A DNA stretch of 64,000 bases from IMG/VR virus record IMGVR_UViG_3300025872_000001. The stretch is one strand, 5' to 3'. The notes beneath the pieces are model-generated. The model did not search any database and was not told where the DNA came from. It saw nothing but the letters and a program-made list of their open reading frames with translations. The position numbers and the translations under genes were made by a program. Below, in pieces: positions 45,898-59,511 of this stretch (within the stretch, counting starts at the first letter, position 1; every line of letters begins with the position of its first letter). Origin of the DNA: a virus.

Positions 45898-46539
45898 ATG
45901 AATAAGCTGGGGCTAAATATAGTGTTGGTGCTTTTGCTTTCTGGTTGCAACATGTTTACTAGAAACAATAGAACAGATAGTAAAGGAGAGAATATAAGTG
46001 CTAATGCCCCAATTTTTATAACTCCAAAGGCGAATGCTAACCCTGTAAATAAAGCAATCACGAATCCAGTCACGCCAAATAAACCTGCACAGGTAGTGTT
46101 CAATGCAGAGAACTATGTGATGGTAAAAGAAAAAGATTTAAATATATTAGTAGACCAAAAGACGAATGAGGTTTTATTAAATATTAAAAAATCAAACGCG
46201 AATGAGAAACAACCAAATAAGGAGTTAGATGCGGCGCTGGACAACCACATAAAAAAAACCATTGAACAGCCATCCGTTAGTTTAACGCCAAAAATTGTCC
46301 AATTAGCTCCTGTTGTTGAACCCGAAAAACCATCTAATGCCCCGGCAATTCACCCATTTTTCGCATTCATTATGACAACACTAATCATCTTAGCATTCAT
46401 CTTAACTGTAGGATATTTCTTCTTCATCAAGAAGAAGGCGTCCAATGAAACCCCAGCCCCCACCGCCCCAGAGACCCCCAAGGTGGCAACCGAAACCGCA
46501 CCCGAAAATCAATCCAACAAAGATACTGAAAAGGCGTAG
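45898..46539 (+). CDS. Lipoprotein with a C-terminal transmembrane helix
   Basis: Lipobox LSGC; TM FFAFIMTTLIILAFILTVGYFFFI; topology resembles a unimolecular spanin. Confidence 0.6.
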   Translation: MNKLGLNIVLVLLLSGCNMFTRNNRTDSKGENISANAPIFITPKANANPVNKAITNPVTPNKPAQVVFNAENYVMVKEKDLNILVDQKTNEVLLNIKKSNANEKQPNKELDAALDNHIKKTIEQPSVSLTPKIVQLAPVVEPEKPSNAPAIHPFFAFIMTTLIILAFILTVGYFFFIKKKASNETPAPTAPETPKVATETAPENQSNKDTEKA

Positions 46540-46563
46540 GATTAAAAATTAATTAAAATTCAG

Positions 46564-46598
46564 ATCACCCCTTGAGAAATCTTGGGGTGATTTTTTTT
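46564..46598 (+). terminator. Intrinsic terminator
   Basis: ATCACCCC...GGGGTGAT followed by a T-tract. Confidence 0.8.
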
Positions 46599-46656
46599 GA
46601 AATTTTTTTCAAAAACCGCTTGACGGGGGATTAAAATGTGGTACAGTTCCCCTCGT

Positions 46657-46896
46657 ATGAATAACACATCTACTGTAGTTAAGCGTGGTCGTGGTCGCCC
46701 TGCGGGTTCGACCTCTTTCGTCAACGTCAGTCTTGCTGACCTTGATCAGTTCGTTGGCACTGCTAGTGCCATTCCCGTGTCGCGTGTTTGGCTTCAAAAG
46801 ATGGGCTTGACAATCCAGCCGATCTCGCGCACTATTCAAGAAGCTGAAGGTGAGGACTCGACCCCGAAGGTGGAGTTCAAGATCTCCAAGCTCTAA
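46657..46896 (+). CDS. Small AT-hook DNA-binding protein
   Basis: KRGRGRPAGS; promoter TTGACG-N16-TACAGT at 46620-46647. Confidence 0.65.
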   Translation: MNNTSTVVKRGRGRPAGSTSFVNVSLADLDQFVGTASAIPVSRVWLQKMGLTIQPISRTIQEAEGEDSTPKVEFKISKL

Positions 46897-46907
46897 CCTA
46901 TACTCAC

Positions 46908-47843
46908 ATGAAACGTTTTGCTGAACTAGTCGGGCAAGAAGATGTCAAGAAGAAGTTGGGGTTTTACCTCGACGCCTTCTCTAAGACCCAGAAGTTTCCC
47001 TTCCTCCTGCTGACGGGGGCGAAGGGAATGGGCAAGACCGAATTCGCCAAGGAGACTGCGCGTGGCATTAATGCCAAGGACGGTGCGCCTCGCTCTTTCC
47101 TTGAAATCAACTGCGGCACGATCAAGAACGCGCAAGTGTTCTTTGAGCAAGTGTTCGCCCCAGTGATTCAAGGCAACGAGGTTACTGTTCTATTGGACGA
47201 ATGCCATGCGCTCCCCAAGGACTTGATGACTGTATTACTTTCTGCTTTCAATACCGAGAAGGCAGATGTGAAGCAGATCACTTGGCGCGACGGTATGTAC
47301 GAGTTCAACTTCAAGTTGCAAAGTTTTATGCTTGCGACTACTGAGGCTGACAAGTTGTTCGCGCCGCTCAAGGATCGCCTCACGCCTGTTGACTTCCAGC
47401 CGTACACAGTTTCGGATGTTGCTAAGATCGTAGAGAAGATGCTCCCTGACATCGCTTTCAAGGGTGATGTCTTGGAGAAGATCGCCTCCACAGTTCGTGG
47501 CAATGCTCGCTCTTCCGTGCAGCGTGCAAAGCAGATTGAACTCTACTGCGAGACCAAAGCAATCAAAGAGTTTGGTGTCAAAGAGTGGACTGATCTTTGC
47601 AACAAGATTGGTATCAACGCATCTGGTCTTAACAACACCGAGATTCAAATCCTGCGCGCTCTTAAAGATCGTGGGGACTGCTCGCTCAATATGCTGTCGG
47701 CCATTACTGGCATGAGTCGCTCCTCGCTCCAGCGTGACGCTGAAATCTTCCTGCTCCAGAAGGGCTACATGAAGATCGAAGGCTCCCGCAAGCTAACCGC
47801 CGCAGGGTCCAAAGTCTTAGAGAATCTTCAGAAGAAGGCTTGA
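46908..47843 (+). CDS. ruvB: RuvB-like AAA+ branch-migration ATPase
   Basis: FAELVGQ, GAKGMGKT, LDECH, ATT...PLKDR, RGNAR, C-terminal winged helix E.FLLQKGY. Confidence 0.85.
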   Translation: MKRFAELVGQEDVKKKLGFYLDAFSKTQKFPFLLLTGAKGMGKTEFAKETARGINAKDGAPRSFLEINCGTIKNAQVFFEQVFAPVIQGNEVTVLLDECHALPKDLMTVLLSAFNTEKADVKQITWRDGMYEFNFKLQSFMLATTEADKLFAPLKDRLTPVDFQPYTVSDVAKIVEKMLPDIAFKGDVLEKIASTVRGNARSSVQRAKQIELYCETKAIKEFGVKEWTDLCNKIGINASGLNNTEIQILRALKDRGDCSLNMLSAITGMSRSSLQRDAEIFLLQKGYMKIEGSRKLTAAGSKVLENLQKKA

Positions 47844-47846
47844 CAA

Positions 47847-48017
47847 ATGAAACACAAAGTCGCAATATGGATAGAAGGTGGCATGATACAGGGGATTCGA
47901 TCCTCCGTAGACATTGACATAGAGATTATTGATATCGATTGGGAAGGCGTAGACAGGGACGCTGCTGAACAGAAATGGGAACAATATCAAACTGAATTAC
48001 CTTTTAACACTGTATGA
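47847..48017 (+). CDS. Small acidic protein (56 aa)
   Basis: MKHKVAIWIEGGMIQGI...; below the ORF-track cut-off. Confidence 0.55.
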   Translation: MKHKVAIWIEGGMIQGIRSSVDIDIEIIDIDWEGVDRDAAEQKWEQYQTELPFNTV

Positions 48018-48175
48018 AAACATTCCGAGTACAATTCGTTGACGAAATCACTGCCAAGACAGAAGAAGATGCATACGAAGTTCTGCTTCGTTATCTCCGT
48101 GACTGTGCAGAGTATGGGGATGCTACCGCATTCCAATTTGAGGAAGTTGAACACAAAGAATATCAGACACATTAA
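48014..48175 (+). CDS. Small acidic protein (53 aa)
   Basis: ATGA-coupled; MKTFRVQFVDEITAKTEEDA. Confidence 0.55.
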   Translation: MKTFRVQFVDEITAKTEEDAYEVLLRYLRDCAEYGDATAFQFEEVEHKEYQTH

Positions 48176-48179
48176 AAAT

Positions 48180-48195
48180 TGTTCCACGTAGAACA
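48180..48195. promoter_or_regulatory. parS-like palindrome
   Basis: TGTTCCACGTAGAACA, one mismatch from TGTTCCACGTGGAACA. Confidence 0.5.
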
Positions 48196-48246
48196 TTTGT
48201 TGCGAAACCTCCCTACTTGCTTATAAGTGGGGAGGAAACGTAACAT

Positions 48247-48433
48247 TAACGACTTAGTCTTAAATAAATAAAAGGTGAATCAATAACGAGTTAATAGTAA
48301 ATAAATAACATATGGTAGGATTGGGGAAAATTCCCCAGCCGGGCCTGGCCCGGATTCACGAACCCTTGGCACGCAATGAGTTACAAAACTCGACAACCCG
48401 GATTGGTGAAGCGCTGGTATTCAACGAGTTACA
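48247..48433 (+). repeat. Four short direct repeats YAAYGASTTA
   Basis: Copies at 48247, 48284, 48374 and 48422. Confidence 0.6.
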
Positions 48434-48497
48434 CCGGGCCTGGCCCGGCTCTATATAGCGCTATAGTCAGCACTATATAGGCGGGGGGTTAGTTATA

Positions 48498-48824
48498 TCA
48501 TCCCTCGTAGTGAGCGTATGTATATACAGTCGGGAGACTGACCGCAAACTTTGCGGCGATCTCGTACAGGTGCAGGGCGCAATCCCTGCGGCGAGTGCGG
48601 CGGGGAAGCTTCTGAGCATAGAACGCAATCTTCCAGCGCTCATCTTCATTCAGCCAGCCGTTGCGCCTGTATAGAGTCACGGCAGACTCACGCGCAAACA
48701 TCTTCTCGGCTTCCTCCGGTGTCTTGTCGCTGTATTCTTCAAGATTCTTCAGAGCCTTTTCGATTCGCTTCTGTTGAATCTGATAACGGGTACGCATCCA
48801 CTCCAACTTGGTTTTGGTATTCAT
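48498..48824 (-). CDS. Protein with a C-terminal helix-turn-helix
   Basis: LYEIAAKFAVSLPTVYTY; start placed at ATG 48824. Confidence 0.6.
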   Translation of the reverse strand: MNTKTKLEWMRTRYQIQQKRIEKALKNLEEYSDKTPEEAEKMFARESAVTLYRRNGWLNEDERWKIAFYAQKLPRRTRRRDCALHLYEIAAKFAVSLPTVYTYAHYEG

Positions 48825-48889
48825 CGCAATTTTTTTTTGAGCAAAACAAACAAAAGTATTAAGAAAAGCGCAATTTGATAAAGCAAGGG

Positions 48890-48918
48890 AAAAAAGGGGG
48901 GCGCTGTCACCGCCCCCC
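48890..48918 (-). terminator. Intrinsic terminator after DUF932
   Basis: GGGGGGCG-loop-CGCCCCCC with a T-tract on the minus strand. Confidence 0.75.
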
Positions 48919-48924
48919 GTTTGA

Positions 48925-49689
48925 TCAGACCGCAACCTCCGGTTTGATGTCAACCGTCAAGTTCAGACCCGCGAAGGGGTCGAGGATGCTGTGCAGGGCT
49001 TGGCTACGCTTGGGCAGCGCGATCAGGTTGCCCTTGTACACCTCGGTGAAGGCGTTGTGCAGGGACCAGAGGTTGCGCGGGGCAAACTCCTCATGCGCGG
49101 GCTTCTCCCATTGGTCGAGAACGTCGGCAATCATCGTCTTGCCAACCGCGCCAGCGCGGTAGCCGCGCAGGATGAGGGTGCCAGCCTCGTCATCGGTGAG
49201 AGGGGTCGCCTCGTACTTGGCAACGCGAGCCTCCTGCTTGTTCCACATATCGGAGAGCGCGCCGATTCCACGCGAAACGATTTGCGGCAGATCGCGCAGG
49301 ACGTTGGTCGTGTGCTTGCGGGCAAACACGATCTCGTTATGGAAAACGAGATTGGAGCAGACAAACGGCGCATTGCCAGCGCAGAAGCCAGCAGGGAAGC
49401 ACTTGTCATGCGAGTTGCGCAGACCGACAACGGTGCCAGAGGAACCCTGCTTGCCCATGTCGATCTCGAAAAGACCGAAGTAACGCTGACCGAAACGGGC
49501 AGTCGTGTGCAGTTCCTGCTTGATCGCAAGACCCGCAACCTTCATCTGCTCGCGAAAGATCGAAACGAGGTTCGCGTGAGGGATCGGCTGATACGTCTCG
49601 GTGGCATTGGGTGTCGGAACCTTGGCGAGATCGGCAAGGCTGATTTGGGAATTGTCTGCGCCGCAGACATGGAGGTTTACGCTGTTCAT
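48925..49689 (-). CDS. DUF932 family protein
   Basis: TYQPIPH, GLRNSHDK, FVCSNL, RKHT, NLWSLHNAFTE. Confidence 0.85.
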   Translation of the reverse strand: MNSVNLHVCGADNSQISLADLAKVPTPNATETYQPIPHANLVSIFREQMKVAGLAIKQELHTTARFGQRYFGLFEIDMGKQGSSGTVVGLRNSHDKCFPAGFCAGNAPFVCSNLVFHNEIVFARKHTTNVLRDLPQIVSRGIGALSDMWNKQEARVAKYEATPLTDDEAGTLILRGYRAGAVGKTMIADVLDQWEKPAHEEFAPRNLWSLHNAFTEVYKGNLIALPKRSQALHSILDPFAGLNLTVDIKPEVAV

Positions 49690-49743
49690 TTTTTTATTTG
49701 GTTGAGGTTGACGAAAAGAAGTTTGGAGAGATTTGCGCAGAGT

Positions 49744-49935
49744 TCAAGAACTTTTTTGATTAATTTTCGCGGCGAATTCGGCGGCGTTGCGATCCGTTTC
49801 GTCGGCCCTTTCGTTGAGCCACTTCTGGAACGCTTGGTGGTCCTTGATCTCGACACCAGGAATCTTGTGATAGAAGGCGATGCTGGTGAGAGCGCCGCGC
49901 ATCGAACCGTACATGATAGGATAATCGTTATTCAT
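49744..49935 (-). CDS. Small hypothetical protein (leaderless)
   Basis: TTGCAA-N16-TAGACT-N7-ATG. Confidence 0.65.
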   Translation of the reverse strand: MNNDYPIMYGSMRGALTSIAFYHKIPGVEIKDHQAFQKWLNERADETDRNAAEFAAKINQKSS

Positions 49936-50142
49936 CGCGAGCAGTCTACAAGGTGCAGTTACACTTGCAAACTTTTTTTTGCGTTAAATTGAATTTTTTT
50001 TCGCGGAGCGTGGAACATTTTTGGCGTCGTGGAACATTTCATTTTGGAATGAACTCTCTTTTCGGCTTGACGGCCAGGCCGGGCCAGGCCCGGTTTGATA
50101 CAGCACCCTATATAGAGCGCTATATCAACCAGACTTTATATA

Positions 50143-50475
50143 TTAAAATGAGCGTCGAGCAAGAAGATTATTCTCTACATAATCCTTTGCATCCTTGAGC
50201 GAAGTGTTGGGGACAAGAGTGCGGACCGCTTTGATCAGAGCAATCTTGTTGGGGCAAATGCCCTTGCCAGCGCGATACTCTTCTTGAATGTTCATAGCTT
50301 CATCGTAAATCGATGCAATTGCATTGCGAACTTCGAAATCGAGAAGCGAATTGATCTTCGGGATCGAAGGGACAATAGGCTGTGACACAATGTCGATTTC
50401 GATCTGATGATGCTCCAGCCCAGTTTTGGCGGCGAAAGCATCGATGATGTCGGTTCTGTTGATGACGAGTTTCAT
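50143..50475 (-). CDS. Protein with a ribosomal bL12 C-terminal-like domain
   Basis: NKIALIKAVRTLVPNTSLKDAKDYVE. Confidence 0.65.
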   Translation of the reverse strand: MKLVINRTDIIDAFAAKTGLEHHQIEIDIVSQPIVPSIPKINSLLDFEVRNAIASIYDEAMNIQEEYRAGKGICPNKIALIKAVRTLVPNTSLKDAKDYVENNLLARRSF

Positions 50476-50479
50476 AGTA

Positions 50480-50692
50480 TTATGATTTGAGGAAGCCGTG
50501 ATGTTTGAGGAGATTTTCATACTCTGCAAGCAATTTCTTTTTGTCGCGAGTGCGGGAACTGCACATTTTGCGAACATGGTTGGAAACAGAACCGCGTGAA
50601 TTAGTCATGCCCAGAGTTTCAAGCTTAAGCGCGCTTCTGAAAGCGAGCAAGCGATATGCGAGAATAGCGGAGGGAGTGTCAGCAATGATCAT
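50480..50692 (-). CDS. Small basic hypothetical protein
   Basis: ALKLETLGMTNSRGS; in-operon. Confidence 0.6.
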   Translation of the reverse strand: MIIADTPSAILAYRLLAFRSALKLETLGMTNSRGSVSNHVRKMCSSRTRDKKKLLAEYENLLKHHGFLKS

Positions 50693-50927
50693 AGTAGTAA
50701 ATTGGAGCCGCGCTGCTCATCTCCTATATGATGAGTGATTAGGGAGTCTTCACGGCTTTGGTTTCTCCCCGTCAGCAAGAGAGAGAATGACAGAGTGTGC
50801 GCGGTGTGCAACATTTATTTTGAATTTATTTTCAGTTGCGAGAGAGATTTTGCTTGACACGCACAGCCGGGCCAGGCCCGGATGCCAAGCCGCAACCAAA
50901 AAGTTACAGCAAGGCTCCGATTTTTTA

Positions 50928-51443
50928 TTAGCTTTCTTCCTCGACTTCCTCCTCCCAACTAAACTCGTCAATTGCAATCTTTTTCCATGCATCAGTTGAA
51001 GAGTCGTCTTCGTGTTCTCCGGTTTGATACTCGCCACCTTCCCAAATGCTGTAGCCAACAAAGCCCATTCCCTCTTCAAGATAAGCAAGCTTGAATTTTA
51101 ATTCGGGGAACTTGGCTGACAATGCTTGAATCGCCATTTGAGGCGGCGACCATGCAGTTGTAAAGCACAGCACCATCAACGTCGGGTCGTACTGCTGGAT
51201 GTCAACTTCATCAATGTCCCACTTGGTTCCCCAATTCTGAACGCGCCAATCATACCAATCATACGCGCCATACTTCTCCTTGAATTCATTACGTTTGGCG
51301 TGCTTGTCGTTGAATGGTTCAGAGTCTTTCAACTCTTCGGGCATTGGGAGAATTTTATTGAACGAGAAAACGTCACCCATCCACTCATTAAAGCGCGTGA
51401 AGTCACCGCTGACATACAGGTTATTGGCACACCAGTTAGGCAT
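50928..51443 (-). CDS. DUF1281/YubB-like ferredoxin-fold protein
   Basis: MPNWCAN, DWYDWRVQNWGTKWD, FTTAWSPP, YLEEGMGF. Confidence 0.85.
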   Translation of the reverse strand: MPNWCANNLYVSGDFTRFNEWMGDVFSFNKILPMPEELKDSEPFNDKHAKRNEFKEKYGAYDWYDWRVQNWGTKWDIDEVDIQQYDPTLMVLCFTTAWSPPQMAIQALSAKFPELKFKLAYLEEGMGFVGYSIWEGGEYQTGEHEDDSSTDAWKKIAIDEFSWEEEVEEES

Positions 51444-51448
51444 AGGAT

Positions 51449-51631
51449 TTAATCGTTTAGGTTATTATCGTCGCAATAGATTGTCATTCCCTTGTCGTAA
51501 CCAGCCTTGTAATCGCTGCCAGCGTTGGGGCTGTTCATTTTTTTCACAGCCTCGTAATCGTATGAGCCTTTGTTGTAAGCATCAAGCACACCGCGCAGGT
51601 ATGCGTAGGTAGGTTCAATCATTGGTTTCAT
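51449..51631 (-). CDS. Small hypothetical protein
   Basis: YLRGVLDA...YKAGYDKG. Confidence 0.55.
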   Translation of the reverse strand: MKPMIEPTYAYLRGVLDAYNKGSYDYEAVKKMNSPNAGSDYKAGYDKGMTIYCDDNNLND

Positions 51632-51987
51632 ATTTGAGCAAAGATTCTTTTCCCGTAGATGGCAACGTAACGGGCATTTTTAATTGGCGACCCATCCTTT
51701 GCAAGCACAAAAGTGGAATACTTGTAGGGATTGTAAGTCACCTCCACAGAATTCTCGGGGATAACTTGGCTGATTGCTGTGCGGAGATAATTGTCCCAAT
51801 CGCCGCGCACCCATGCGTGAACATTCTTGCGCTTGTTCTTCAGCACACGCTGCCGCCCCGCCTCACTAACGTGGAACGTGGGGTTGTCGAGGGTAATCGC
51901 AGGGGCGTGGGCAATCACTTTCCCATTGACACGAATCGACAGCATGTGTTTATGCAGGTTGAAGTAGACTTCCGTTTTGATTTTCAT
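51628..51987 (-). CDS. Conserved phage protein
   Basis: VYFNLHK..SIR, VSEAGRQRVL..KRKNVHAWVRG, VTYNPYK. Confidence 0.75.
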   Translation of the reverse strand: MKIKTEVYFNLHKHMLSIRVNGKVIAHAPAITLDNPTFHVSEAGRQRVLKNKRKNVHAWVRGDWDNYLRTAISQVIPENSVEVTYNPYKYSTFVLAKDGSPIKNARYVAIYGKRIFAQI

Positions 51988-52202
51988 GATTCTTGTTCAG
52001 CAAACATTTCTTCCCAGACATGGGGAGGAGTACCAGTCATGATGAACTCGCGCTCATCAGCGGTCAAGAAAAAAAATGCTTCTTGAATCAGCGCGCCAAG
52101 ATCGCATTTCATCAAAGCCGTGGCGTATTGCTCTTCAGTCATCGTGGGAAAATCCATCGTGTAGATTTGCCCGTTGAATTGGCATCGTTTGGTTAGTTGC
52201 AT
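51984..52202 (-). CDS. Conserved small phage protein (leaderless)
   Basis: LIQEAF..LTADEREFIMTG; TTGCAC-N16-CACACT-N7-ATG. Confidence 0.7.
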   Translation of the reverse strand: MQLTKRCQFNGQIYTMDFPTMTEEQYATALMKCDLGALIQEAFFFLTADEREFIMTGTPPHVWEEMFAEQES

Positions 52203-52508
52203 GGTTAAGAGTGTGAATAAAAAATCCGTGAGTGCAACAGCAAAAGAAGAAACAACAAATAAATAAATACGAAATAATGCTTGACAACCCGCCGGGCCTG
52301 GCCCGGAATCCTCACCTGGTGCACCTGGCGAATAAAAAATCTGCGCTCTCGCGAAATTTTCGGTTTTCTGCCGGGCCTGGCCCGGATTATATAGCGCCTA
52401 TATAGCACTATACAATCACTATATAGTTTCGGTGGTGTTTAATGAAGGGCAACGAAACCTCCCCATGCCGCAAGCTCTCCTTGCGTACTATTCCACCGAA
52501 AAAATTAT

Positions 52509-52736
52509 TTAGTTAGCATAAGCCAAGCGGCCTTCTGTAGTCACTAGAGGGCGGCGACCTTCGGCTCCCTCTAGATACTCTATAACCTCCGCGCTAGTGG
52601 CGAGGCGCATATAAGAGTTAGGCCACCCCACAAGATCTTCCCGATGATAAGAGGTCGCGCATACACGCGGACCCGTTGCAATCACGCGCTCCACTCGGCG
52701 CGTCCTTGTATTATACCACAGTTGACCGTTTTTCAT
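52509..52736 (-). CDS. Hypothetical protein
   Basis: MKNGQLWYNTRTRRVERV; overlaps the upstream stop. Confidence 0.6.
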   Translation of the reverse strand: MKNGQLWYNTRTRRVERVIATGPRVCATSYHREDLVGWPNSYMRLATSAEVIEYLEGAEGRRPLVTTEGRLAYAN

Positions 52737-53239
52737 TTGTAGAAGATATGATGATTGATTTGAACCGTCTTGACAAGCTTTTTCGCCCAACTCGGGGAAA
52801 CTTTTTCGGCGTGATAATGCGTCGCGCCGTTGGTGTAATTCGTTTTCTGATTAACTAAAGCGAGAGCCTGTGACCATTTCGGATGGCGCTTTGCTTTCGC
52901 GATTCCGTCCTCGACGTTTTTTCCATTCCAACACGAAAATTGTTTCGGCGCGAGAATGACGGCAAGTTCCGTTTTATTCTTGGCGCGATTCGCGATCACC
53001 TCGCGAACCGCCGCCATTGCGCGGGGATCAGCCTCCCCACCCGCTTCCAAGATCAGAGTCGCCGCCACAATCTCCCCACGCGAGACGGTGACCGTGGTGG
53101 TCTGCCCCCGCAGCGATAAGACGGCCCCAAAAAGCAGCGTCAGCAGTAACAACCGAAAAACCGCGCAAAGCAAGATGCTTTTCAACAAGCTCGGTGTTCC
53201 ATTCATATTTTTGCAGGAGGTATGCGAATTGTCTTTCAT
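52733..53239 (-). CDS. Cell wall hydrolase (SleB/Hydrolase_2 family)
   Basis: LEAGGE, AVREVIANR, QFSCWN, TNGATHYH, INHHIFYK; N-terminal hydrophobic segment. Confidence 0.88.
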   Translation of the reverse strand: MKDNSHTSCKNMNGTPSLLKSILLCAVFRLLLLTLLFGAVLSLRGQTTTVTVSRGEIVAATLILEAGGEADPRAMAAVREVIANRAKNKTELAVILAPKQFSCWNGKNVEDGIAKAKRHPKWSQALALVNQKTNYTNGATHYHAEKVSPSWAKKLVKTVQINHHIFYK

Positions 53240-53248
53240 TTACTGATT

Positions 53249-53437
53249 TCATGAGGTGACCTTGGTGGCGTATTCTTCTGCGCGCTTTTCCATCTCAACA
53301 AGCTCGCGGTCAATCTTGGCGCGGAATTCCGCGACAGCCTTGCGGCTCATATTCACGGGGAGGTAAAGGTCGATACTCTTGAGGAGGCTTTCCATGCCGC
53401 CCTTGAGGTAGATTTCTTTGAGTTCGTTTTTGTTCAT
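53249..53437 (-). CDS. Small hypothetical protein (leaderless)
   Basis: TTGACG-N16-CACACT-N7-ATG. Confidence 0.65.
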   Translation of the reverse strand: MNKNELKEIYLKGGMESLLKSIDLYLPVNMSRKAVAEFRAKIDRELVEMEKRAEEYATKVTS

Positions 53438-53482
53438 GAGAGAGAGTGTGGAGATTTTTTTTGTTTCGTCAACAACTTTTTT

Positions 53483-53668
53483 TCACTTTTTGAACCAGCG
53501 GAAAACGGTGCGATTCGCGGAGGAAAATTCGACGATGTACTCCGTGAAGGTAGCGGGGACAATTTGGAAAACGTCGTTTTTCATGGCGCGAGCTTGGCAC
53601 GCTTTCCAAGCGAGTTCGCAACCCGAACCCTGCGCGATGATGATTGAAGACCAGCGGTAGTTTTTCAT
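53483..53668 (-). CDS. Small hypothetical protein (paralogue of 54665-54859)
   Basis: TTGACT-N16-CATTCT-N7-ATG; WSS.IIA.G..C...EYIV...RWF.K. Confidence 0.7.
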   Translation of the reverse strand: MKNYRWSSIIIAQGSGCELAWKACQARAMKNDVFQIVPATFTEYIVEFSSANRTVFRWFKK

Positions 53669-53871
53669 GAGAGAGAGAATGACGAAAAAATCCGTGAAGT
53701 CAAATTTTTTTTCAGATTTTTTTTTGGAGCGTGGAACATTCTGCGCGTCGTGGAACATTTCATTTTAAATTGAAAGTTCATTTTCGCTTGACGGCAGGGC
53801 GCCGGGCCTGGCCCGGATTTATATAACACTATATAAAGGGATGTAGAGTCCCTATATAGAGAGTCTATATA

Positions 53872-54141
53872 TCACTCGCCCATACTATAGTGGTCATCAT
53901 AGGCGGACCCGTAGTCCTCGTCGGTGCCGAGGCCAGCAGACGCGAGGGCATCCGCATCCGCCTCCGCATCGGTGCGGAAGCCGTCAAACGGCTCCTCCTC
54001 GTTGGCGGCGTTATAGGACGCCTGTAGGGTGTCGATGACCGCATCAAGCTGCGGCGCGTTCATCGCGTCGGCGGCATCGCGCAGCGCGGCGAGAACGAGG
54101 GAGGCTTCGGTGAGGGTGAGGGCGAGGTTGATCTGGTTCAT
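53872..54141 (-). CDS. Small acidic protein
   Basis: C-terminal DADALASAGLGTDEDY; TTTACC-N16-TACTTT-N7-ATG. Confidence 0.7.
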   Translation of the reverse strand: MNQINLALTLTEASLVLAALRDAADAMNAPQLDAVIDTLQASYNAANEEEPFDGFRTDAEADADALASAGLGTDEDYGSAYDDHYSMGE

Positions 54142-54190
54142 GGGGATAAAAGTAAGAAAAAATTCGTGCAGGTAAAGAAAAAAGTGAAAG

Positions 54191-54216
54191 AAAAAAAGGG
54201 GCGCTCAGAGCGCCCC
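54191..54216 (-). terminator. Intrinsic terminator
   Basis: GGGGCGCT/AGCGCCCC hairpin with a T-tract on the minus strand. Confidence 0.7.
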
Positions 54217-54375
54217 CGAATCGACAAGGGCCGCGAGGCGATCCCAAGCGGCGTCAACTTCGTCGTTGATGGCGTTGACCATATCAAACCAAGCGTGCAG
54301 ATCGGCGCGGTCAGCGTCGGTCAGATTGGCGTACTCGGCGGCGGCGTTGCTGGGGAGGGAGTTGATGAGGTTCAT
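54205..54375 (-). CDS. Small acidic protein (56 aa, leaderless)
   Basis: MNLINSLPSNAAAEYANLTDADRADLHAWFD...; TTGACC-N16-CATTCT-N7-ATG. Confidence 0.65.
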   Translation of the reverse strand: MNLINSLPSNAAAEYANLTDADRADLHAWFDMVNAINDEVDAAWDRLAALVDSGAL

Positions 54376-54664
54376 GAGAGAGAGAATGAAACTTTTTTCG
54401 GTGCGGTCAACTTTTTTTTCAGATTTTTTTCAGATTTTTTTTCAGAGTGTGGAACATTTCGCGCATCGTGGAACATTTTCGTGGAACATTTTTTTCTGCG
54501 TGGAACATTTTTTTTTCTTGACACGCGCCTGGCGCGGGGCCGGGCCTGGCCCGGAATCTTAGCCTGGTGCACCTGGCGAATAAAAAATTTACCGTCTCGC
54601 GAAATTTTGGGTTTTTCACCGGGCCTGGCCCGGATTTATATAGCGCTATATAAACCCTTATATA

Positions 54665-54859
54665 TTATTTACGAAACCAGCGCACAATTGTTATATGGCC
54701 CTTCGGTATAACAACTATATATTCCTCGCCCAACGCTTTAGCAATTTCGAAGTGGGTGCCACTCATTGCGTTTGCTTGCTGGGTAGCGAAGGCCGCAGCG
54801 CAATCCGCGCCGCGAGCAATTATCTGAGACGCCCAACCGTAGTGCATTTGTTTTTTCAT
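54665..54859 (-). CDS. Small hypothetical protein (paralogue of 53483-53668)
   Basis: TTGCGC-N16-TAAGGT-N6-ATG. Confidence 0.65.
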   Translation of the reverse strand: MKKQMHYGWASQIIARGADCAAAFATQQANAMSGTHFEIAKALGEEYIVVIPKGHITIVRWFRK

Positions 54860-54970
54860 GCTGCTACCTTACCAGAAAAACGGCCCCGCGCAAGTTTTTT
54901 TTCGCATTTTTTTCGATTTTTTTTCGCATTTTTTTCTTGCAAGTGTGCGCGCTGCGTGTATCTTTCCCGC
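54860..54970. promoter_or_regulatory. Divergent pair of leaderless promoters with T-tracts
   Basis: Minus strand TTGCGC (54893) / TAAGGT; plus strand TTGCAA (54937)-N16-TATCTT-N6-ATG. Confidence 0.7.
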
Positions 54971-55669
54971 ATGAAACTCAATCTCCTGTCAGTAGGTGCA
55001 GATGCCAAGACAAGCAAGGGCGAGGCTTTCGGATGGCTGACGGCTATTCTCTACCTTGCGCCAGCGCGCCAAGCTGGGCGCGGCGAAGTTTGCACGCATC
55101 GGTCAGCTGGATGCACGCTTGCGTGCCTCTACACGGCGGGGCGTGGTAAGATGTCCAACGTGCAGCAAGCGCGCATTCGGCGCACTCAATTATTTTTCGA
55201 TGACTTCGCGACCTTCAAGGCTCTTCTCTTCGCTGACATCCGCGCATTCGTTGCAAACTGTGAAAAGCAAGGGATGCGCGCTTGTGTTCGCTTGAACGGT
55301 ACAAGCGACATTGCGTGGGAGCGGCTGGGCGTGTTCGCTGCGTTCCCTTCCGTGCAGTTCTATGACTATTCGAAGAGTCCGATTCGTGCCTTGCAATTTG
55401 CCAAGGGCGCAATGCCGAGCAATTACCATTTGACTTTCTCGCGCAGCGAAAGCAACGAAGCGCAAGCAATCGACGTTCTCCGCGCAGGTGGCAACGTGGC
55501 GGTTGTGTTCGCGAACTACCTTCCCCCAACGTGGGAAGGGTTTCCCGTGGTGAACGGTGACGAAAGCGACTTGCGTTTCCTTGACAAGCGCAACGTGGTG
55601 GTTGGCCTCAAGGCGAAAGGCGCAGGCAAAAAAGATGCAACTGGGTTTGTCGTGACCGCAACGCTGTGA
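54971..55669 (+). CDS. GP88-like (radical-SAM-related) protein
   Basis: C-x6-C-x3-C (CTHRSAGCTLAC), VRLNGTSD, QFYDYSK, NYHLTFS, GDESDLRFLD, GLKAKG. Confidence 0.75.
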   Translation: MKLNLLSVGADAKTSKGEAFGWLTAILYLAPARQAGRGEVCTHRSAGCTLACLYTAGRGKMSNVQQARIRRTQLFFDDFATFKALLFADIRAFVANCEKQGMRACVRLNGTSDIAWERLGVFAAFPSVQFYDYSKSPIRALQFAKGAMPSNYHLTFSRSESNEAQAIDVLRAGGNVAVVFANYLPPTWEGFPVVNGDESDLRFLDKRNVVVGLKAKGAGKKDATGFVVTATL

Positions 55670-55707
55670 ACGCCGAGCTTTTCCCTCTTGTTTTGTTCTT
55701 AGTCCTT

Positions 55708-55732
55708 GCCCTTGCGTTACTTACGCAAGGGC
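55708..55732. terminator. GC hairpin, possible terminator
   Basis: GCCCTTGCGT-TACTT-ACGCAAGGGC. Confidence 0.5.
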
Positions 55733-55788
55733 GAAGAAAAAGATAAAAAATTCCTTGCAATGCGGGGCGCGTGTGCTATCTTAGCAGC

Positions 55789-55971
55789 ATGAAAAACAAA
55801 ATGATTATCAACGGTAAGGTGGTCGAAGATTACAAGCTGCACGTCGAAGGTGATTGCGGTGATGGCTCTTGGATTGAGTGGGCGAAGTTCGAAGATGGAA
55901 CAGAGCTAGAAGGTGAAGAGCTATTCGAATTCGAAAAAGTTTACTTGCCCGACTTGGTGTGGGGTAGGTGA
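55789..55971 (+). CDS. Small acidic protein (leaderless)
   Basis: TTGCAA-N16-TATCTT-N6-ATG; AKFEDGTELEGEEL. Confidence 0.65.
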   Translation: MKNKMIINGKVVEDYKLHVEGDCGDGSWIEWAKFEDGTELEGEELFEFEKVYLPDLVWGR

Positions 55972-56196
55972 CACCCTCCCCCATTAATTAAAAATCGCGA
56001 CCCGCGTTTCCGTGGGGGCGCGGGGGGGGTGGTATTTAGTCCGCTCTACCCCAATTTTAAATACCCTAAACTATCTCTTTATCTTCTTCTATATCTATCT
56101 TTATCCCTTTATATGTATACTATACTATGCATCTATGGGGGCTGTGGGGGCTTAATGTGTTATATACGATACGTTATTGGGGGTGTAAAAAGAAGT

Positions 56197-56406
56197 ATGA
56201 GAATCAATTCGGACATGGGTTTAGGAGCAGTAGCAAGAATGTATGAAAAGAACTCAACTTTAGGTTCAGTATCAAAGGCCGCTGATTGGTTTGGGGATGT
56301 GGAGAAGATAGATGAACTTAAAAAAGCATTAATAATGGCAATTGATTGCGGCAATTTCGATAAAGCTTTGTTTATACTTAAACAGTTACAAACTCTTAAA
56401 GCGTAA
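56197..56406 (+). CDS. Small hypothetical protein
   Basis: GTGTAA box 8 nt upstream of ATG 56197. Confidence 0.5.
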   Translation: MRINSDMGLGAVARMYEKNSTLGSVSKAADWFGDVEKIDELKKALIMAIDCGNFDKALFILKQLQTLKA

Positions 56407-56499
56407 CTATTTCTTAACTATCGCAAGATAGCCTACTGTAAGCATCAATATAAGAACAATAATCAACCAATCTGTTTCTAGATCGTTGTTCTTCTTCAC
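56407..56499 (-). CDS. 30-aa membrane peptide (putative)
   Basis: GTG start 8 nt after GTGTAA; WLIIVLILMLTVGYLAIV. Confidence 0.35.
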   Translation of the reverse strand: MKKNNDLETDWLIIVLILMLTVGYLAIVKK

Positions 56500-56693
56500 G
56501 GGGATATTTACACCCCACGCCCCCATTTATAGAAAATGGGGAAAATTCCCCAATTCTATTTGTTTAGGTGAACCGGGAAACCGGGGAGGGTCATTTTACC
56601 AATGATGAATAATATTAATTATAAGGGCAACATCAGCGATGATTGCTAAAATCATTAAAACAAATTGAAAGCGCTCACTCTTAGTGTCGAATT

Positions 56694-57242
56694 TCATTTT
56701 TTATTTATTATTTTTTTAAATCTTCTACTAGCTTGATTTTGCCCAATAACAATTTCATTAGTCTTGATATAGTCTATTTTACAATACGAAAGCGGAAGTT
56801 TATAGTAATTTATCTTCCAATTATTTACGATTTGCTGCAAAACTTTTTGATCCCATTTTTGGGGATTTTCATTATTTAGTTTTATCCACTCGTCTAATAA
56901 TTTAAAATTATTTTCAGTGGGCTTAAAAAATAATGTCCCAGACATTAACTCTTGGCGATAAAAACACAAACCAAGATCCTCATTGATTTGACAGAAAATG
57001 TCTGGAGATTTTTTTAAAACAGCATCTGCGTCAAGCCAAACCACCGGGGTATTTAACTGTTTAAGCTTTTCTTTTATTATATAGGCTTTATATTGACAGT
57101 TTTTTTCCCATGTGCCTTTATTTTCAAAAGGCACTAAATGTTCATCAGTAAATCCAAACTGTTTTAAAGAAATTCTTAAATTATTTATTTCTTTTTCGTA
57201 AGGAGTGTTTTTTGTATATCCGCTTACTATTTTGTAGTTCAC
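56694..57242 (-). CDS. GT-A glycosyltransferase
   Basis: VVWLDADA, SGTLFF, WDQKVLQ. Confidence 0.8.
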   Translation of the reverse strand: MNYKIVSGYTKNTPYEKEINNLRISLKQFGFTDEHLVPFENKGTWEKNCQYKAYIIKEKLKQLNTPVVWLDADAVLKKSPDIFCQINEDLGLCFYRQELMSGTLFFKPTENNFKLLDEWIKLNNENPQKWDQKVLQQIVNNWKINYYKLPLSYCKIDYIKTNEIVIGQNQASRRFKKIINKK

Positions 57243-57271
57243 TATTTTTTTGATTCAGTAAATCTTCAACC

Positions 57272-57904
57272 TTAATCAGTTTCCCTTCGTGAAGTGTGTA
57301 ATGTTCCTTCGGTATCCTCTGTAGTAATTGAGTTAGATCCATATAAAGTTTTAGTTAAACGGTCAATTTCTTCTTGGTCAAGGGGAAAGCGTTGGCCCCC
57401 GCGATATTCCTTAACTTGAATATAGCTTGGGACTTTATTTATGGTTACGCAACGGAGAAACTCTACCTTGCGGCGATTCTCTCTAAGTGGCAAATTATCA
57501 AACAGATAAACAAACTCTGCTGGCTCCAAATTAATTGATGGAGATTGGATATGCTCGCGAGCATAAATGTCATCCAGCGCGAAATTAAATTCAAAAAGCG
57601 CATTCATCACCTTTGCATACTCATAAGTAGCAATAGTCAACATGCGAACCTCCCCGATCTCGCGCAGTTTAGCGAGAAACTCCTTTGCGCCGGGTCTCAG
57701 GGATGTTTTATACTCATTGTCTTCAACTGTCACTGGCACCGCACACTTGCATGGTGTTTCATGATAATCATAAGTGTGAATTAACGTCTCGTCTAAATCA
57801 ACGAATATGTATGGCTTCATGTCTTTATTCCTTAAATAAAAATGATAAATATTATATCCATCTCTCGGATCGATGTAGATGGTAGGATATTGTAACTGGG
57901 CCAT
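57272..57904 (-). CDS. HAD-superfamily (NIF/FCP1-like) phosphatase
   Basis: FVDLDETLIH, LRPGAKEFL, LFDN; alternative start at 57820. Confidence 0.8.
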   Translation of the reverse strand: MAQLQYPTIYIDPRDGYNIYHFYLRNKDMKPYIFVDLDETLIHTYDYHETPCKCAVPVTVEDNEYKTSLRPGAKEFLAKLREIGEVRMLTIATYEYAKVMNALFEFNFALDDIYAREHIQSPSINLEPAEFVYLFDNLPLRENRRKVEFLRCVTINKVPSYIQVKEYRGGQRFPLDQEEIDRLTKTLYGSNSITTEDTEGTLHTSRRETD

Positions 57905-57917
57905 CTACTAGTTTACA

Positions 57918-58109
57918 CTAGTAGCTTTCTATGCCGTTCCTTACAAATCTTAAAATTGAATATAGCGATTCTTTGTAATCTTTGCCAGCATTAGGATACA
58001 GGCAAGCTCCAAGTAAAAATACTACTGTCATTATAGCGGCTAAAACTAGACCAATGCAAGCCCTTACTGGCATAAAAAGATATCTAATTATATGCTGGGT
58101 CATGTCCAA
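57918..58109 (-). CDS. Small membrane protein
   Basis: Single TM helix. Confidence 0.5.
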   Translation of the reverse strand: MDMTQHIIRYLFMPVRACIGLVLAAIMTVVFLLGACLYPNAGKDYKESLYSILRFVRNGIESY

Positions 58110-58696
58110 AAATATTGTCTATACTTAGCTACCCATATGATCATTTCTTCATCAAGCTTTTCAATCTTTTTTATTTTTTTACTCCATGTGTCGCGCCTTT
58201 TCTCAAAAGGTAATTCGTAATTTTCGTTAAGCAGATCAGAAACTTCTTTCATCATTTCTTCTCTGGTTATGGTAACATAATGATAATATTTTTTTAAGTC
58301 TCTTTCGAATTGACCCCTCTTATTCCTTGCTTTAAGTTGAGATTCGAAATGCTCAAAATACTTTTCGCGCTCAACAAGCTCTTTTATAGTTTGGATATTA
58401 AAATTTATAATGATTTCTGGCAAGTCTTCGTAGCGAGAAGGAAACACAATGTTCCTCATCTCTGTTCTTGGGTTTTTGACATAATGTTTTAACTTCCACC
58501 AAAAATCATTGATTTTTGTTTTCAATACCCAATACTCCATAGCAATAAATTCTCTAAAGAAATATTGAACTGGGTAATTCTTTTTGATCTTATTATCAAA
58601 CGTTTCCCAATCTTCCATAGAAAGAGCGAATGGTTTAATGTAAGTCTCAGTTGGCCAATACCAAACCCTTTTTGTTTCTATTTTTATATCTTTCAT
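58100..58696 (-). CDS. Hypothetical protein
   Basis: NYPVQYFFRE...RQYFWT; start placed at ATG 58696. Confidence 0.65.
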   Translation of the reverse strand: MKDIKIETKRVWYWPTETYIKPFALSMEDWETFDNKIKKNYPVQYFFREFIAMEYWVLKTKINDFWWKLKHYVKNPRTEMRNIVFPSRYEDLPEIIINFNIQTIKELVEREKYFEHFESQLKARNKRGQFERDLKKYYHYVTITREEMMKEVSDLLNENYELPFEKRRDTWSKKIKKIEKLDEEMIIWVAKYRQYFWT

Positions 58697-59274
58697 ATGT
58701 ATAAGCACCTCATTTTGCTGGCGAATCTTTCGACCATATCCCAAAAATTTATCCATATTTTATAATGCAAGAAACGATAGAATTTAGTATAAAAGAAATA
58801 TTTATTGATCCAACGCTTTTGTTCTTTTTCTATTTTTTCCTTCATTTCAGCATCGCGAGCTTTTCTTTCTGCATTGTCGGTCTTATCAAACTTAAACAGT
58901 TCAAGCTTTTGCAGTTTGCCGTCAGTGAATACCGCTTTAAATTCCACCCAGCAATCCCATTTATCTTGAACATTCATTAGAAATTCATAAAAATAAATCT
59001 CTCCGTGGAAATTTACTTTATCAAAATATGGACCTTTTCTTTCCATGAAGCCAATTCTATCCATAATGCTTTTTGCAGTAGGATCTCCAGCAATCCATTC
59101 TTCTGTCTTGTATTTTTCCTCAAACAGTTCGCCATTTTGAATGATGTAATGCGACATGGTGCAGTCCAAATCTTTTGTTTGGAATGACAAGTTGTTTTTA
59201 TCAATACCAAGGTCGATCATTTCCTGTGAGAAAGGAAGATCACCCGAAACAGAGATAGTGTCGAACATGCCCAT
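58693..59274 (-). CDS. Conserved phage protein
   Basis: MGMFDTI, FQTKDLDC, FHGEIYFY, EFKAVFTDGKL. Confidence 0.75.
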   Translation of the reverse strand: MGMFDTISVSGDLPFSQEMIDLGIDKNNLSFQTKDLDCTMSHYIIQNGELFEEKYKTEEWIAGDPTAKSIMDRIGFMERKGPYFDKVNFHGEIYFYEFLMNVQDKWDCWVEFKAVFTDGKLQKLELFKFDKTDNAERKARDAEMKEKIEKEQKRWINKYFFYTKFYRFLHYKIWINFWDMVERFASKMRCLYI

Positions 59275-59275
59275 A

Positions 59276-59509
59276 TTATTTTTTGGTTAATTTGAATGTC
59301 CCGTCAGATTGGTCGGTCCAAATGATTTCGTCGCCAACCTTCCAACCTAAACCATCCATCAAGACTTGAGGAATCTCAATGAATTGATCGCCGTTGTCAA
59401 GAGTTTTTACTGGAACAGTAGCTTTTTTAGCAAAAATTTCATCCCAGTTTTTTTGGAATTCCTCTTGAGAGACTGAGAATGGTCTGGGCTTAGATCCTTT
59501 ACCGTTCAT
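59276..59509 (-). CDS. AbrB/MazE-like small DNA-binding protein
   Basis: IEIPQVLMDGLGWKVGDEIIW; N-terminal GKGSKPRP. Confidence 0.6.
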   Translation of the reverse strand: MNGKGSKPRPFSVSQEEFQKNWDEIFAKKATVPVKTLDNGDQFIEIPQVLMDGLGWKVGDEIIWTDQSDGTFKLTKK

Positions 59510-59511
59510 GC

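Follow-up and report, generated by a model that had tools for sequence, protein, structure and literature searches.

Our analysis of the window, the whole 64-kb stretch of viral DNA, showed that the palindromic 15-mer CCGGGCCWGGCCCGG found between the small genes of one array consists of three tandem CCNGG pentamers, usually in the form CCGGG.CCWGG.CCCGG, a composition that goes beyond its earlier description as a palindrome. We tentatively propose, and judge to be close to an even call, that this (CCNGG)n box is a putative protein-recognition site in shuffle-prone early regulatory cassettes. The window contains 9 exact copies where 0 are expected, and the word appeared in 0 of 100 shuffles. 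As the initial annotation had claimed for nine intergenic palindromes within 6.3 kb, all copies lie outside the conserved minus-strand genes, at 48.3–54.6 kb and nowhere else in the 64 kb (Table 1); any ORF overlapping a copy is a short, unsupported shadow ORF. The motif given there, CCGGGCC(A/T)GGCCCGG, fits the window copies, but its strict W centre does not extend to the relatives, which have C or G. The conserved 64-nt spacer of two copy pairs (89% identical) and the perfect 20-bp AT palindrome at 54635 were both recovered.

Table 1 Features of the gene array and its intergenic cassettes (window coordinates).
Feature	Position	Strand	Remark
RuvB-like AAA+ gene	46908–47843	+	borders the array in all relatives; used as anchor
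TGTTCCACGTAGAACA	48180–48195	.	inverted version of the GTGGAACA box
Accessory palindrome GGGGAAAATTCCCC	48323–48336	.	abuts copy 1
(CCNGG)3 copy 1	48339–48353	.	exact match; convergent junction with plus-strand genes
(CCNGG)3 copy 2	48434–48448	.	pairs with copy 1; 80-nt spacer 48354–48433
About 17 small genes	48498–54859	-	blocks of 1–4
Classical intrinsic terminator in array	48896–48918	-	G/C hairpin and T-run
Second classical terminator in array	54197–54217
GTGGAACATT direct repeats	50010–50038; 53731–53759, 54449–54509	+	operator-like
CTTGAC boxes near the element	50066–50071; also 50853, 52280, 53787, 54517	+	GTCAAG in gene direction
4-unit element	50074–50093	.	CCAGG.CCGGG.CCAGG.CCCGG; includes copy 3 (start 50079)
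(CCNGG)3 copy 4	50867–50881	.	exact match
Copies 5 and 6	52292–52385	.	starts 52292 and 52371; conserved 64-nt spacer 52307–52370
Example array promoter	53666–53703	-	A-tract, TTGACT, N16, CATTCT, 7 nt, leaderless ATG
Further array promoters	54373–54410, 53435–53472, 52200–52237, 49933–49970, 48822–48886, 54857–54893	-
(CCNGG)3 copy 7	53802–53816	.	exact match
TATATAG / CACTATATA box cluster	53817–53875	.	between upstream stop codon and element
Similar TATATAG-type clusters	48449–48482, 50106–50144, 52386–52426, 54634–54666	.
Copies 8 and 9	54540–54633	.	starts 54540 and 54619; 64-nt spacer 54555–54618; 89% identical to 52292–52385

The array, with a GC content of about 0.5 as compared with 0.35–0.39 in its flanks, encodes DUF932, L5 gp82-like, L5 gp88-like and Api92-like proteins, a cell-wall hydrolase domain and many ORFans, and its division into blocks of 1–4 genes with their own promoters is as first described. 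The promoters follow the pattern A-tract plus TTGAC-N16-NANNNT directly at the ATG of each block, and the mRNAs are predicted to be leaderless, without a Shine-Dalgarno sequence. Their −10 box is non-canonical, and a canonical promoter scanner showed no enrichment. The paired repeat boxes noted earlier are present as 8 exact copies of GTGGAACATT, mostly 19 nt apart, and the TTGAC beside the palindromes is CTTGAC at five sites, a (T/C)GTCAAG box recurring beside the element. The suggestion that the palindrome occupies the position of a −10 box did not hold, since the gap between TTGAC and palindrome is not fixed and, depending on the relative, measures anything between 2 and 22 nt. This spacing also contradicts a plus-strand promoter with CTTGAC as the −35 box and the palindrome as the spacer or −10 box, for which no −10-like hexamer was found at 16–18 nt. 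Two other candidates were rejected. The TATATAG boxes, considered as T7/SP6-like or T4-late-like promoters, are confined to the array, and no single-subunit RNA polymerase (PF00940) was matched in a search whose control was silent. A sigma-54 enhancer reading was discarded because the TGGCACG-N4-TTGT box 62–89 nt past the element occurs in group B only, its −12 element is TTGT instead of TTGC, and the adjacent AAA+ protein is a RuvB homologue without GAFTGA.

The exact 15-mer was present in 65 distinct copies, together with 10 single-mismatch copies, in 448 kb, and it is unchanged in about 20 related viral contigs despite a coding DNA divergence of up to 35%. In relatives it always lies in the same array beside the RuvB-like gene; 11 of the 15 RuvB-anchored loci have 3–8 exact 15-mers, down to 71% protein identity, and in a 127-kb, 88%-complete relative every tandem CCNGG run falls within 3.7 kb beside that gene. 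Searches of cultured phages with the array (blastn) and with the tail and RuvB-like genes (tblastn) gave no close relative, the array matched no known RNA family, and the 15-mer was not found in any paper of the literature searched. Eight of the 10 mismatches are at free N positions (3 or 13) and none is compensated; they represent about six independent events, four of them at N positions (P ~0.005), and the central base is also free to vary. Stem-breaking N-position variants persist at orthologous positions. Because the mismatches fall at N positions without compensation, because the L131/L132 branch carries 2-unit versions that fold no better than shuffles, and because a 4-unit version exists, the conserved property is likely to be the sequence rather than the structure.

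On these sequence grounds we propose both protein binding at the box and a regulatory role for it. The nine palindromes are copies of a family-wide cis element, each sitting in a composite intergenic cassette that separates units of 1–4 genes, and the array would be the hyperplastic early (host-takeover) region of a large uncultured phage lineage. Read with the genes, a cassette opens where the preceding unit ends, with a real terminator in one subgroup and with TATATAG boxes in that of the window; next come the CCNGG box, a box of GTCAAG or −35-like type, GTGGAACA operator repeats along with A-tracts, and finally the TTGAC-N16-NANNNT promoter and a leaderless ATG. The box would act on double-stranded DNA as a strict sequence-specific site, each CCNGG being read by a candidate phage or host protein; it would mark the border of early transcription units on their upstream side, as a rule some 100–115 bp ahead of the −35 box, and may co-regulate or insulate them. 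Action at the DNA level is suggested because elements follow terminators and precede promoters: 22 of the 60 distinct elements lie, in the gene direction, 20–30 nt after a hairpin with a T-run and before the next promoter, and the preferred distance from element to next −35 box is 98–114 nt in subgroups with differing internal sequences. This constancy of spacing might be inherited from a common ancestral cassette and need not indicate constraint. For roughly half of the copies, most of which sit at the ends of arrays, no promoter is predicted close by, and in the window's subgroup, where no terminator precedes the element, it may be transcribed. A counterpoint to the proposal is that our searches yielded no candidate binding protein: no DNA-binding candidate emerged among the neighbouring and array ORFs (Pfam, PHROGs, NCBIfam, ESM Atlas), and neither a ParB for the parS-like boxes nor a C5-methyltransferase or clear CCNGG-family nuclease was found in relatives.

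Since most copies are perfect dyads, a structural role may also be considered, and we allow a minor but real chance that the element works by folding into a hairpin, either in RNA or as extruded DNA, and keeps neighbouring transcription units apart as a terminator, attenuator or 3' stabiliser. A single 15-mer folds as a 6-bp G/C stem with a 3-nt loop, the dyad extends to 55–60 nt in group B and L130 (z −3.5 to −6), and on the plus strand two of the nine window copies are scored as weak terminators. Junctions without a classical terminator are occupied by the element in the window's subgroup, while the two element-free junctions have one. A comparable case is given by the promoter-early stem-loop (PeSL) regulatory cassettes of T4-type phages (Arbiol et al. 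2010, PMC2839356; Comeau et al. 2014, PMC4122927), whose stem-loops terminate transcription in reporter assays (PMC2839356). However, none of the nine window copies is followed by a T-run in the gene direction, and the flanks in group B, T-rich before and A-rich after the element in both orientations, have the wrong polarity either way. The 22 elements behind a genuine terminator, the uncompensated and stem-breaking variants and the unfolded 2-unit versions also argue against a hairpin, as does the fact that ordinary terminators of the same loci vary freely in sequence. REP/BIME elements and intrinsic terminators resemble the box as G/C-rich intergenic dyads between transcription units, but the box differs from them in the missing T-run, the lack of compensatory variation and the word-level identity across diverged genomes.

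Outside the array, the sub-sites of the box are avoided across the family. For CCWGG, 12 occurrences were counted where 77 were expected, placing it lowest among the 16 comparable pentamers, and CCGG occurred 55 times where 149 were expected; this avoidance lends statistical support to the earlier idea of a link to restriction-type sites. Deamination of 5mC was rejected as the cause of the CCWGG loss, the deamination products not being in excess. It is conceivable, though we consider it unlikely, that the box is an interface with a CCNGG/CCWGG-specific restriction-type activity of host or phage, the sites having been erased everywhere but ahead of the early units. The boxes might then be protected or sensing sites tuning early (anti-defence) genes, or else break-initiated recombination hotspots at which cassettes would be shuffled with the help of the RuvB-like and endonuclease VII genes.

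The arrays of relatives differ by single-gene insertions, by one replacement and by a gene that lies on opposite sides of the same module, the 236-bp module being the unit of homology where this gene changes sides. Relatives also show a cassette inverted between two elements, and in L087 the 48339/48434 copy pair has collapsed to a single copy exactly at the element. The integron-like shuffling platform of the initial annotation is right in that the cassette region is plastic, with gains, losses and an inversion, and wrong in that it is not integron-like. The accompanying claim of recombination at the palindrome gained little support in the relatives: indel junctions between close relatives coincide with gene borders or with the promoter repeats CATGAGAGAGAG or GTCAAATTTT, the inverted-cassette junctions could not be placed at the 15-mer, and breakpoints within 10 nt of the element amount to 4% as compared with 2% at random, a mild enrichment.

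In our judgement it is quite improbable that the element is the crossover site of an integron-like recombinase, or a break site for a nuclease or junction resolvase that stimulates flanking exchange, one variant being that endonuclease VII cuts an extruded cruciform in concert with a RuvB-like motor. A palindromic site could support both deletion and inversion, the inverted cassette is bounded by two elements, tandem pairs are reduced to single copies exactly at the element, the adjacent gene was verified to encode a genuine RuvB homologue of full length, the window contains an endonuclease VII gene, and the avoidance of sub-sites elsewhere would fit a nuclease target. On the other hand, no integrase or resolvase came to light: in agreement with the original remark that no integrase is visible, neither tyrosine nor serine recombinases were found in the contigs of five relatives (one 88% complete; PF00589 and PF00239, with controls responding in 14 and 12 genomes) or in the scanned window ORFs. 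Moreover, the 15-mer is too short to depend on cruciform extrusion, and L131 lacks it as a dyad. Integron attC sites are imperfect dyads of 57–141 bp with R''/L''-L'/R' boxes, and their promoterless cassettes are expressed from a common Pc. The array shares with integrons co-oriented small cassettes, imperfectly repeated palindromic separators and a gene content that varies between relatives, but it has no IntI, its site is a perfect 15-bp dyad, each cassette has its own promoter, and the breakpoints are not at the site. Under the proposed protein-site reading, cassette gain, loss, transposition and inversion would come from homologous recombination between repeated cassettes, as in PeSLs, and site-specific recombination at the 15-mer would not be their source. 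A MITE-like palindrome-spacer-palindrome unit was also rejected, the flanks being co-duplicated without target-site duplication.

There is a slim chance that the boxes are a restriction- or modification-linked cluster of CCWGG, CCSGG, CCGG and GGCC sites, used as a decoy or protected platform, or as a sensor by which a host CCNGG-type enzyme or methylase is detected and early expression adjusted. The fixed CC and GG with a free N follow the logic of restriction sites, and owing to the 6-fold (CCWGG) and about 3-fold (CCGG) avoidance elsewhere, 35 of the window's 51 CCNGG sites fall in the 7-kb array. No convincing C5-methyltransferase that would protect these sites was found in the relatives, which fits this possibility. 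Nor was an EcoRII-C-type nuclease, Vsr or a clear CCNGG-family nuclease found (the CCNGG-family control was uninformative); the negative CCNGG-family result counts against it, and so does the clustering, which would leave no part of the genome more vulnerable than the early region. We know of no restriction decoy, platform or sensor of such a kind.

The early promoters read by the virion RNA polymerase of phage N4 are hairpins with a stem of 5–7 bp and a 3-nt loop, placed some 11 nt before the transcription start. Although the 6-bp stem, the 3-nt loop, the G/C-rich box in AT-rich surroundings and the probably early array match this geometry, a promoter of this type, or a pause signal in stepwise DNA entry, is very hard to credit, with the element 130 nt or more ahead of the start codons, sigma-70-like promoters directly at the genes, no polymerase match in the silent-control search, siphovirus-type tail genes, and persisting stem-breaking and 2-unit forms; the hairpin, ssDNA-promoter and staged-entry ideas raised at first thus gained no support.

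The earlier remark that a described system of such a layout is not known went too far, because the PeSL cassettes are a close analogue (PMC2839356, PMC4122927). In both systems, repeated intergenic cassettes made of a G/C stem-loop, an AT-rich tract and a sigma-70-like early promoter are clustered in a hyperplastic stretch with small ORFans, close relatives differ by insertions, deletions and replacements at or near the cassettes, and recombination probably occurs in the AT-rich or promoter part. Unlike the variable Gn-loop-Cn stem of PeSLs, however, the word here does not vary from (CCNGG)3; it precedes the −35 box by about 100 nt, a larger spacing that holds operator repeats, lacks a T-run, is often additional to a real terminator, and belongs to leaderless mRNAs without a Shine-Dalgarno sequence. 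The phage also differs from PeSL hosts in its lambda-like tail-tip genes, and a search for Gp23, the T4 capsid protein, gave no match (control silent). Our proposal would carry the idea of repeated cassettes through which accessory genes are both expressed and shuffled from T4-type phages over to an uncultured lineage, adding a further ingredient, a word-perfect (CCNGG)n in 3–9 copies per genome whose sub-sites are removed from the other 95%. This contrast between a box that is kept and sub-sites that are purged is a clean sign, open to testing, that a strong sequence-specific interaction takes place when infection has just begun, and the box could serve as a handy metagenome marker for the host-takeover/anti-defence array of this phage family.

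Short protein sites that are strictly conserved, occur in multiple copies and also recombine have a precedent in the stoperators of cluster A mycobacteriophages, the L5 gp71 sites with consensus GGTGGc/aTGTCAAG (PMC5712189). The box resembles them as a short conserved multi-copy intergenic word, recombination between stoperator copies likewise giving deletions, and the L5 gp82- and gp88-like genes of the array and the (T/C)GTCAAG beside the element are further points of contact. Stoperators are asymmetric, oriented with transcription and genome-wide, and they have a known repressor in temperate phages, whereas the CCNGG box is symmetric, is confined to one 4–7-kb region and lies upstream of promoters, and the search for a repressor found none. 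The accessory palindrome GGGGAAAATTCCCC also occurs beside elements in relatives, and a solitary copy lies at 56538.

The nine G/C palindromes noted between the array genes in the initial annotation are confirmed here and more sharply defined: the window has nine matches to CCGGGCCWGGCCCGG, with no further match in its 64 kb and none in 100 shuffled sequences. Its listed companions are also present, namely the CTTGAC boxes, eight exact GTGGAACATT boxes mostly spaced by 19 nt, two pairs of palindromes with a common 64-nt spacer (89% identical), a perfect 20-bp AT palindrome at 54635 among AT-rich TATATAG boxes, and small minus-strand genes grouped in blocks of 1-4. The repeat is weakly polar: on the plus strand, A(T/A)T comes after seven of the nine copies.

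The 15-mer consists of three CCNGG pentamers in tandem. The copy at 50079 belongs to a four-unit run, and two related contigs, L131 and L132, carry only two-unit versions at equivalent places (e.g. CCCGG.CCCGG, CCCGG.CCAGG and CCGGG.CCGGG). When 448 kb were searched without bias for 15-mers with at most two mismatches, 65 exact elements and 10 with a single mismatch were found in distinct contexts, and the variants stood in normal module contexts. Eight of the ten are changed at position 3 or 13, the N of an outer pentamer; when adjusted for orthology, about six independent changes remain, of which four fall on an N (P about 0.005). All ten are uncompensated, though each would leave the 6-bp stem mismatched at its centre, and two-unit elements fold no better than shuffled sequence, which argues that the conserved thing is the word (CCNGG)n and not a hairpin. 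The central base of the element is free to vary. Just upstream of the eighth copy, at 54523-54537, is another G/C palindrome of 15 bp, ACGCGCCTGGCGCGG, which has CCTGG at its centre. An accessory palindrome, GGGGAAAATTCCCC or GGGGAATTTTCCCC, often adjoins the element, and the window's array is flanked by one copy of it on either side.

Two scans of viral contigs, one with the 15-mer and one anchored on the RuvB-like protein, gathered about 20 related contigs. Groups A and B and the more distant L130 and L133/L134 have the same 15-mer in 3-8 copies per locus, always in an array next to the gene for the RuvB-like protein; one relative of 127 kb, 88% complete, has all its tandem CCNGG runs within 3.7 kb. 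The surroundings of the element vary between groups: TATATAG boxes and GTCAAG in group A; symmetric phased A-tracts (TTTTACAAATTTTTTACAA, element, TTGTAAAAAAAATGTAAAA) in group B, with parS-like boxes and TTGAC further out; TTTGCA/TGCAAA arms in L130/L131; and in L133, GTGGAACA boxes directly adjoining the element on both sides (around 12396, 14196 and 16065).

Features of the window and of related contigs (L numbers), and grouping of the relatives
Feature	Position or contigs	Strand	Remark
CCGGGCCWGGCCCGG copies	48339, 48434, 50079, 50867, 52292, 52371, 53802, 54540, 54619		pattern search
GTGGAACA boxes	window 48180-48195; 50010-50038; 53731-53759; 54449-54509
TTGGCACG-N4-(T/A)TGT box	L026 7771; L038 5000; L056 6744, 7542; L076 11820; L101 9683, 10481
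(T/C)GTCAAG box	window 50071, 50858, 52285, 53792, 54522; group B and L131 modules		minus-strand reading
GGGGAAAATTCCCC/GGGGAATTTTCCCC palindrome	window 48323-48336, 56538-56551; L039 8236, 8975; L095 6210; L123 12710
Insertion, 471 bp	50699		one gene
Gene replacement	50928-51443		border to border
Insertion, 264 bp	53433		junction is repeated TTCATGAGAGAGAGTGTG
Insertion, 325 bp	53715		junction within GTCAAATTTTTTTT
Gene loss	48498-48824		in L087
RuvB homologue	46908-47843	+	beside array
Endonuclease VII (junction resolvase) gene	39279-39635	+	within tRNA cluster
CsgF and CsgG (curli secretion) homologues	24397-25664	+
Sigma-70-family factor	63077-63787	+	phage-encoded; weak match, weakly ECF-like
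Group A	L039/L122, L074, L087, L121, L123, L124		85-99% identical to window
Group B	L026/L127, L038/L129, L047, L056, L061, L076/L095/L126, L101, L128		conserved genes 65-80% identical
More distant still	L130, L133/L134		RuvB-like protein 71-74% identical

The most likely reading, though one that we would place a little short of probable, is that early transcription units are bordered upstream by a candidate recognition site, the (CCNGG)n box, which would be read in a sequence-specific way at the level of DNA. Promoters of their own (A-tract, TTGAC, N16, C/T-A-N3-T, about 7 nt, ATG) serve the minus-strand array genes, and the mRNAs appear to be leaderless because the -10-like hexamer lies only about 7 nt before the ATG. 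Two classical terminators also lie in the array, at junctions without the palindrome. Such a leaderless promoter is predicted downstream of about 35 of 66 elements, the -35 box starting preferably 98-114 nt past the element (groups A, B and L133), and elements lacking one are mostly at array ends. A hairpin with a T-run stands 20-30 nt before the element, in gene direction, in 22 of 60 distinct elements, mostly of group B; at least 13 of these 22 have strong terminators there (-14 to -24 kcal/mol), and only five elements have such a signal on the opposite side. These 22 elements thus occupy the DNA that separates a terminator from the following promoter. Group A has no terminator ahead of the element, and TATATAG boxes occupy that place.

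A hairpin, terminator or insulator role of the box itself is unlikely. Two of the nine window copies are weakly terminator-like on the antisense strand, but none is followed by a T-run in gene direction, and the polarity of both flanks in group B does not suit termination in either direction.

The boxes that accompany the element differ in kind. In the window, the parS-like GTGGAACA boxes form 19-nt-spaced direct repeats and one inverted pair, TGTTCCACGTAGAACA; a search of five relatives' contigs turned up no ParB_N domain, and a ParB for these boxes, if any, would therefore have to be the host's. In group B, a TTGGCACG-N4-(T/A)TGT box at a fixed 62-89 nt after the element is sigma-54-like (-24/-12), yet has GT at -12; TTGGCACG is also present in the window's left spacer (48375). 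The (T/C)GTCAAG box, in gene direction, is common to all subgroups and sometimes lies in the loop of a terminator hairpin. It matches the stoperator consensus of L5, GGTGGc/aTGTCAAG (PMC5712189), in its 3' half, and L5 gp82- and gp88-like genes are in the array, but the match may be a coincidence.

L5-type stoperators are 13-bp, well-conserved, multi-copy repressor sites between whose copies deletions arise (PMC5712189), so a short, strict, repeated protein site can be both regulatory and an incidental substrate of recombination. They are asymmetric and genome-wide, whereas the CCNGG element is symmetric and restricted to the array.

The array had also been proposed to be an integron-like shuffling platform. 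When the window was aligned with L039, L087 and L074, genes were found gained, lost and replaced, but the breakpoints were mostly off the palindrome core: the element was a junction only where a tandem pair had collapsed to one copy (L087) or a second copy and its spacer had been replaced (L039). A 258-bp gene is found to one side of a 236-bp module in L026 and to the other side of it in L038, the module being the unit of homology; between L126 and L127/L128, an approximately 880-bp cassette bounded by two elements is inverted, parted from them by 145 and 383 nt of unalignable DNA. Over 125 breakpoints from ten pairwise comparisons, the median distance to an element was 185 nt, against 318 nt for random positions, and 4% lay within 10 nt of one, against 2%; the enrichment is for intergenic DNA and not for the element core. 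A recombination-hotspot role of the box is improbable. Cassette shuffling is supported, in a form like that of the PeSLs of T4-type phages, and the integron reading fails its defining tests, with no integrase, attC architecture or shared promoter; no tyrosine or serine recombinase was found in the five relatives' contigs, searched with positive controls, or among the scanned window ORFs.

In PeSLs, a G/C stem-loop, AT-rich DNA and a sigma-70-like promoter for early transcription make up a cassette that is repeated, chiefly in hyperplastic regions. ORFans are inserted, deleted and swapped, and mini-circles formed, when the cassettes recombine with one another, probably through their AT-rich part (PMC2839356, PMC4122927). 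The present array behaves alike at the level of the whole cassette. Unlike in PeSLs, however, the dyad here is an invariant word, and operator repeats stand in the roughly 100 nt that separate it from the promoter; no T-run belongs to it, and often there is a real terminator besides. The transcripts are leaderless, and the phage is apparently not T4-type.

The element is made of sites that the phage otherwise avoids. Against a maximal-order Markov expectation with the elements masked, no 4-bp palindrome in the window is avoided more than CCGG (27 observed, 75 expected), and avoidance of CCWGG is strong too (16 against 49). Outside the arrays, in 113 kb drawn from the window (1-46000 and 56000-64000) and six relatives, CCWGG (12 against 77) has the lowest ratio among the 16 XYWY'X' pentamers, 0.16, the runner-up being 0.65, and CCGG reaches 0.37 (55 against 149); GGWCC, GCGC and CGWCG are at normal frequencies, and deamination products show no excess. 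The 7-kb array nevertheless holds 35 of the window's 51 CCNGG sites, nearly all in intergenic modules; the element is thus retained against a genome-wide pressure removing its sub-sites. The depletion of CCWGG and CCGG is a classic restriction-avoidance signature, which would point to host enzymes specific for CCWGG and CCGG. The link with restriction sites is statistically real; we regard a restriction-linked role of the box, such as the methylation or restriction sensor envisaged earlier, as the most doubtful of these alternatives. Neither a phage C5-methyltransferase nor a ParB was found, nor an EcoRII-C-type nuclease, for which the control was uninformative, nor a convincing Vsr.

The window is a portion of a large phage genome with lambda-like tail-tip genes, including a 1928-aa J-like protein, and genes for ribonucleotide reductase, rIIA, UvdE, PhoH, seven tRNAs and several glycosyltransferases. 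Array DNA, tail gene and RuvB-like gene had no close match among 50,697 cultured-phage records; the only cultured phages having a distinctive gene in common with it are Methylophilales phage Melnitz and Pelagibacter phage HTVC008M. CsgF/CsgG homologues are known from pelagimyophages and Melnitz, and their presence suggests a Gram-negative host. The sigma-70-family factor is kept in all five relatives' contigs (G001-G005). On its left the array adjoins the gene for a full-length homologue of RuvB (E = 2e-15 to the Thermotoga protein), and it encodes DUF932, L5 gp82-like, cell-wall-hydrolase and Api92-like domains together with ORFans. Its GC content (48.5-54.9 kb) is about 0.5, against 0.35-0.39 in the surroundings; with its neighbours (46000-56000) it is about 0.46-0.52, against about 0.35-0.39 for the genome, and 30-42 kb is also higher (0.41-0.46). 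Non-coding DNA at the right edge of the GC-rich island (55975-56170) contains C-runs, G-runs and short pyrimidine-rich repeats (TATCT/CTTTATC). The GP88-family gene (54971-55669, plus strand) probably starts at ATG 54971, leaderless and with the promoter TTGCAA-N16-TATCTT, rather than at 54695. While the window has this gene outside the array, it is within the array in L038 and flanked by two elements in L095.
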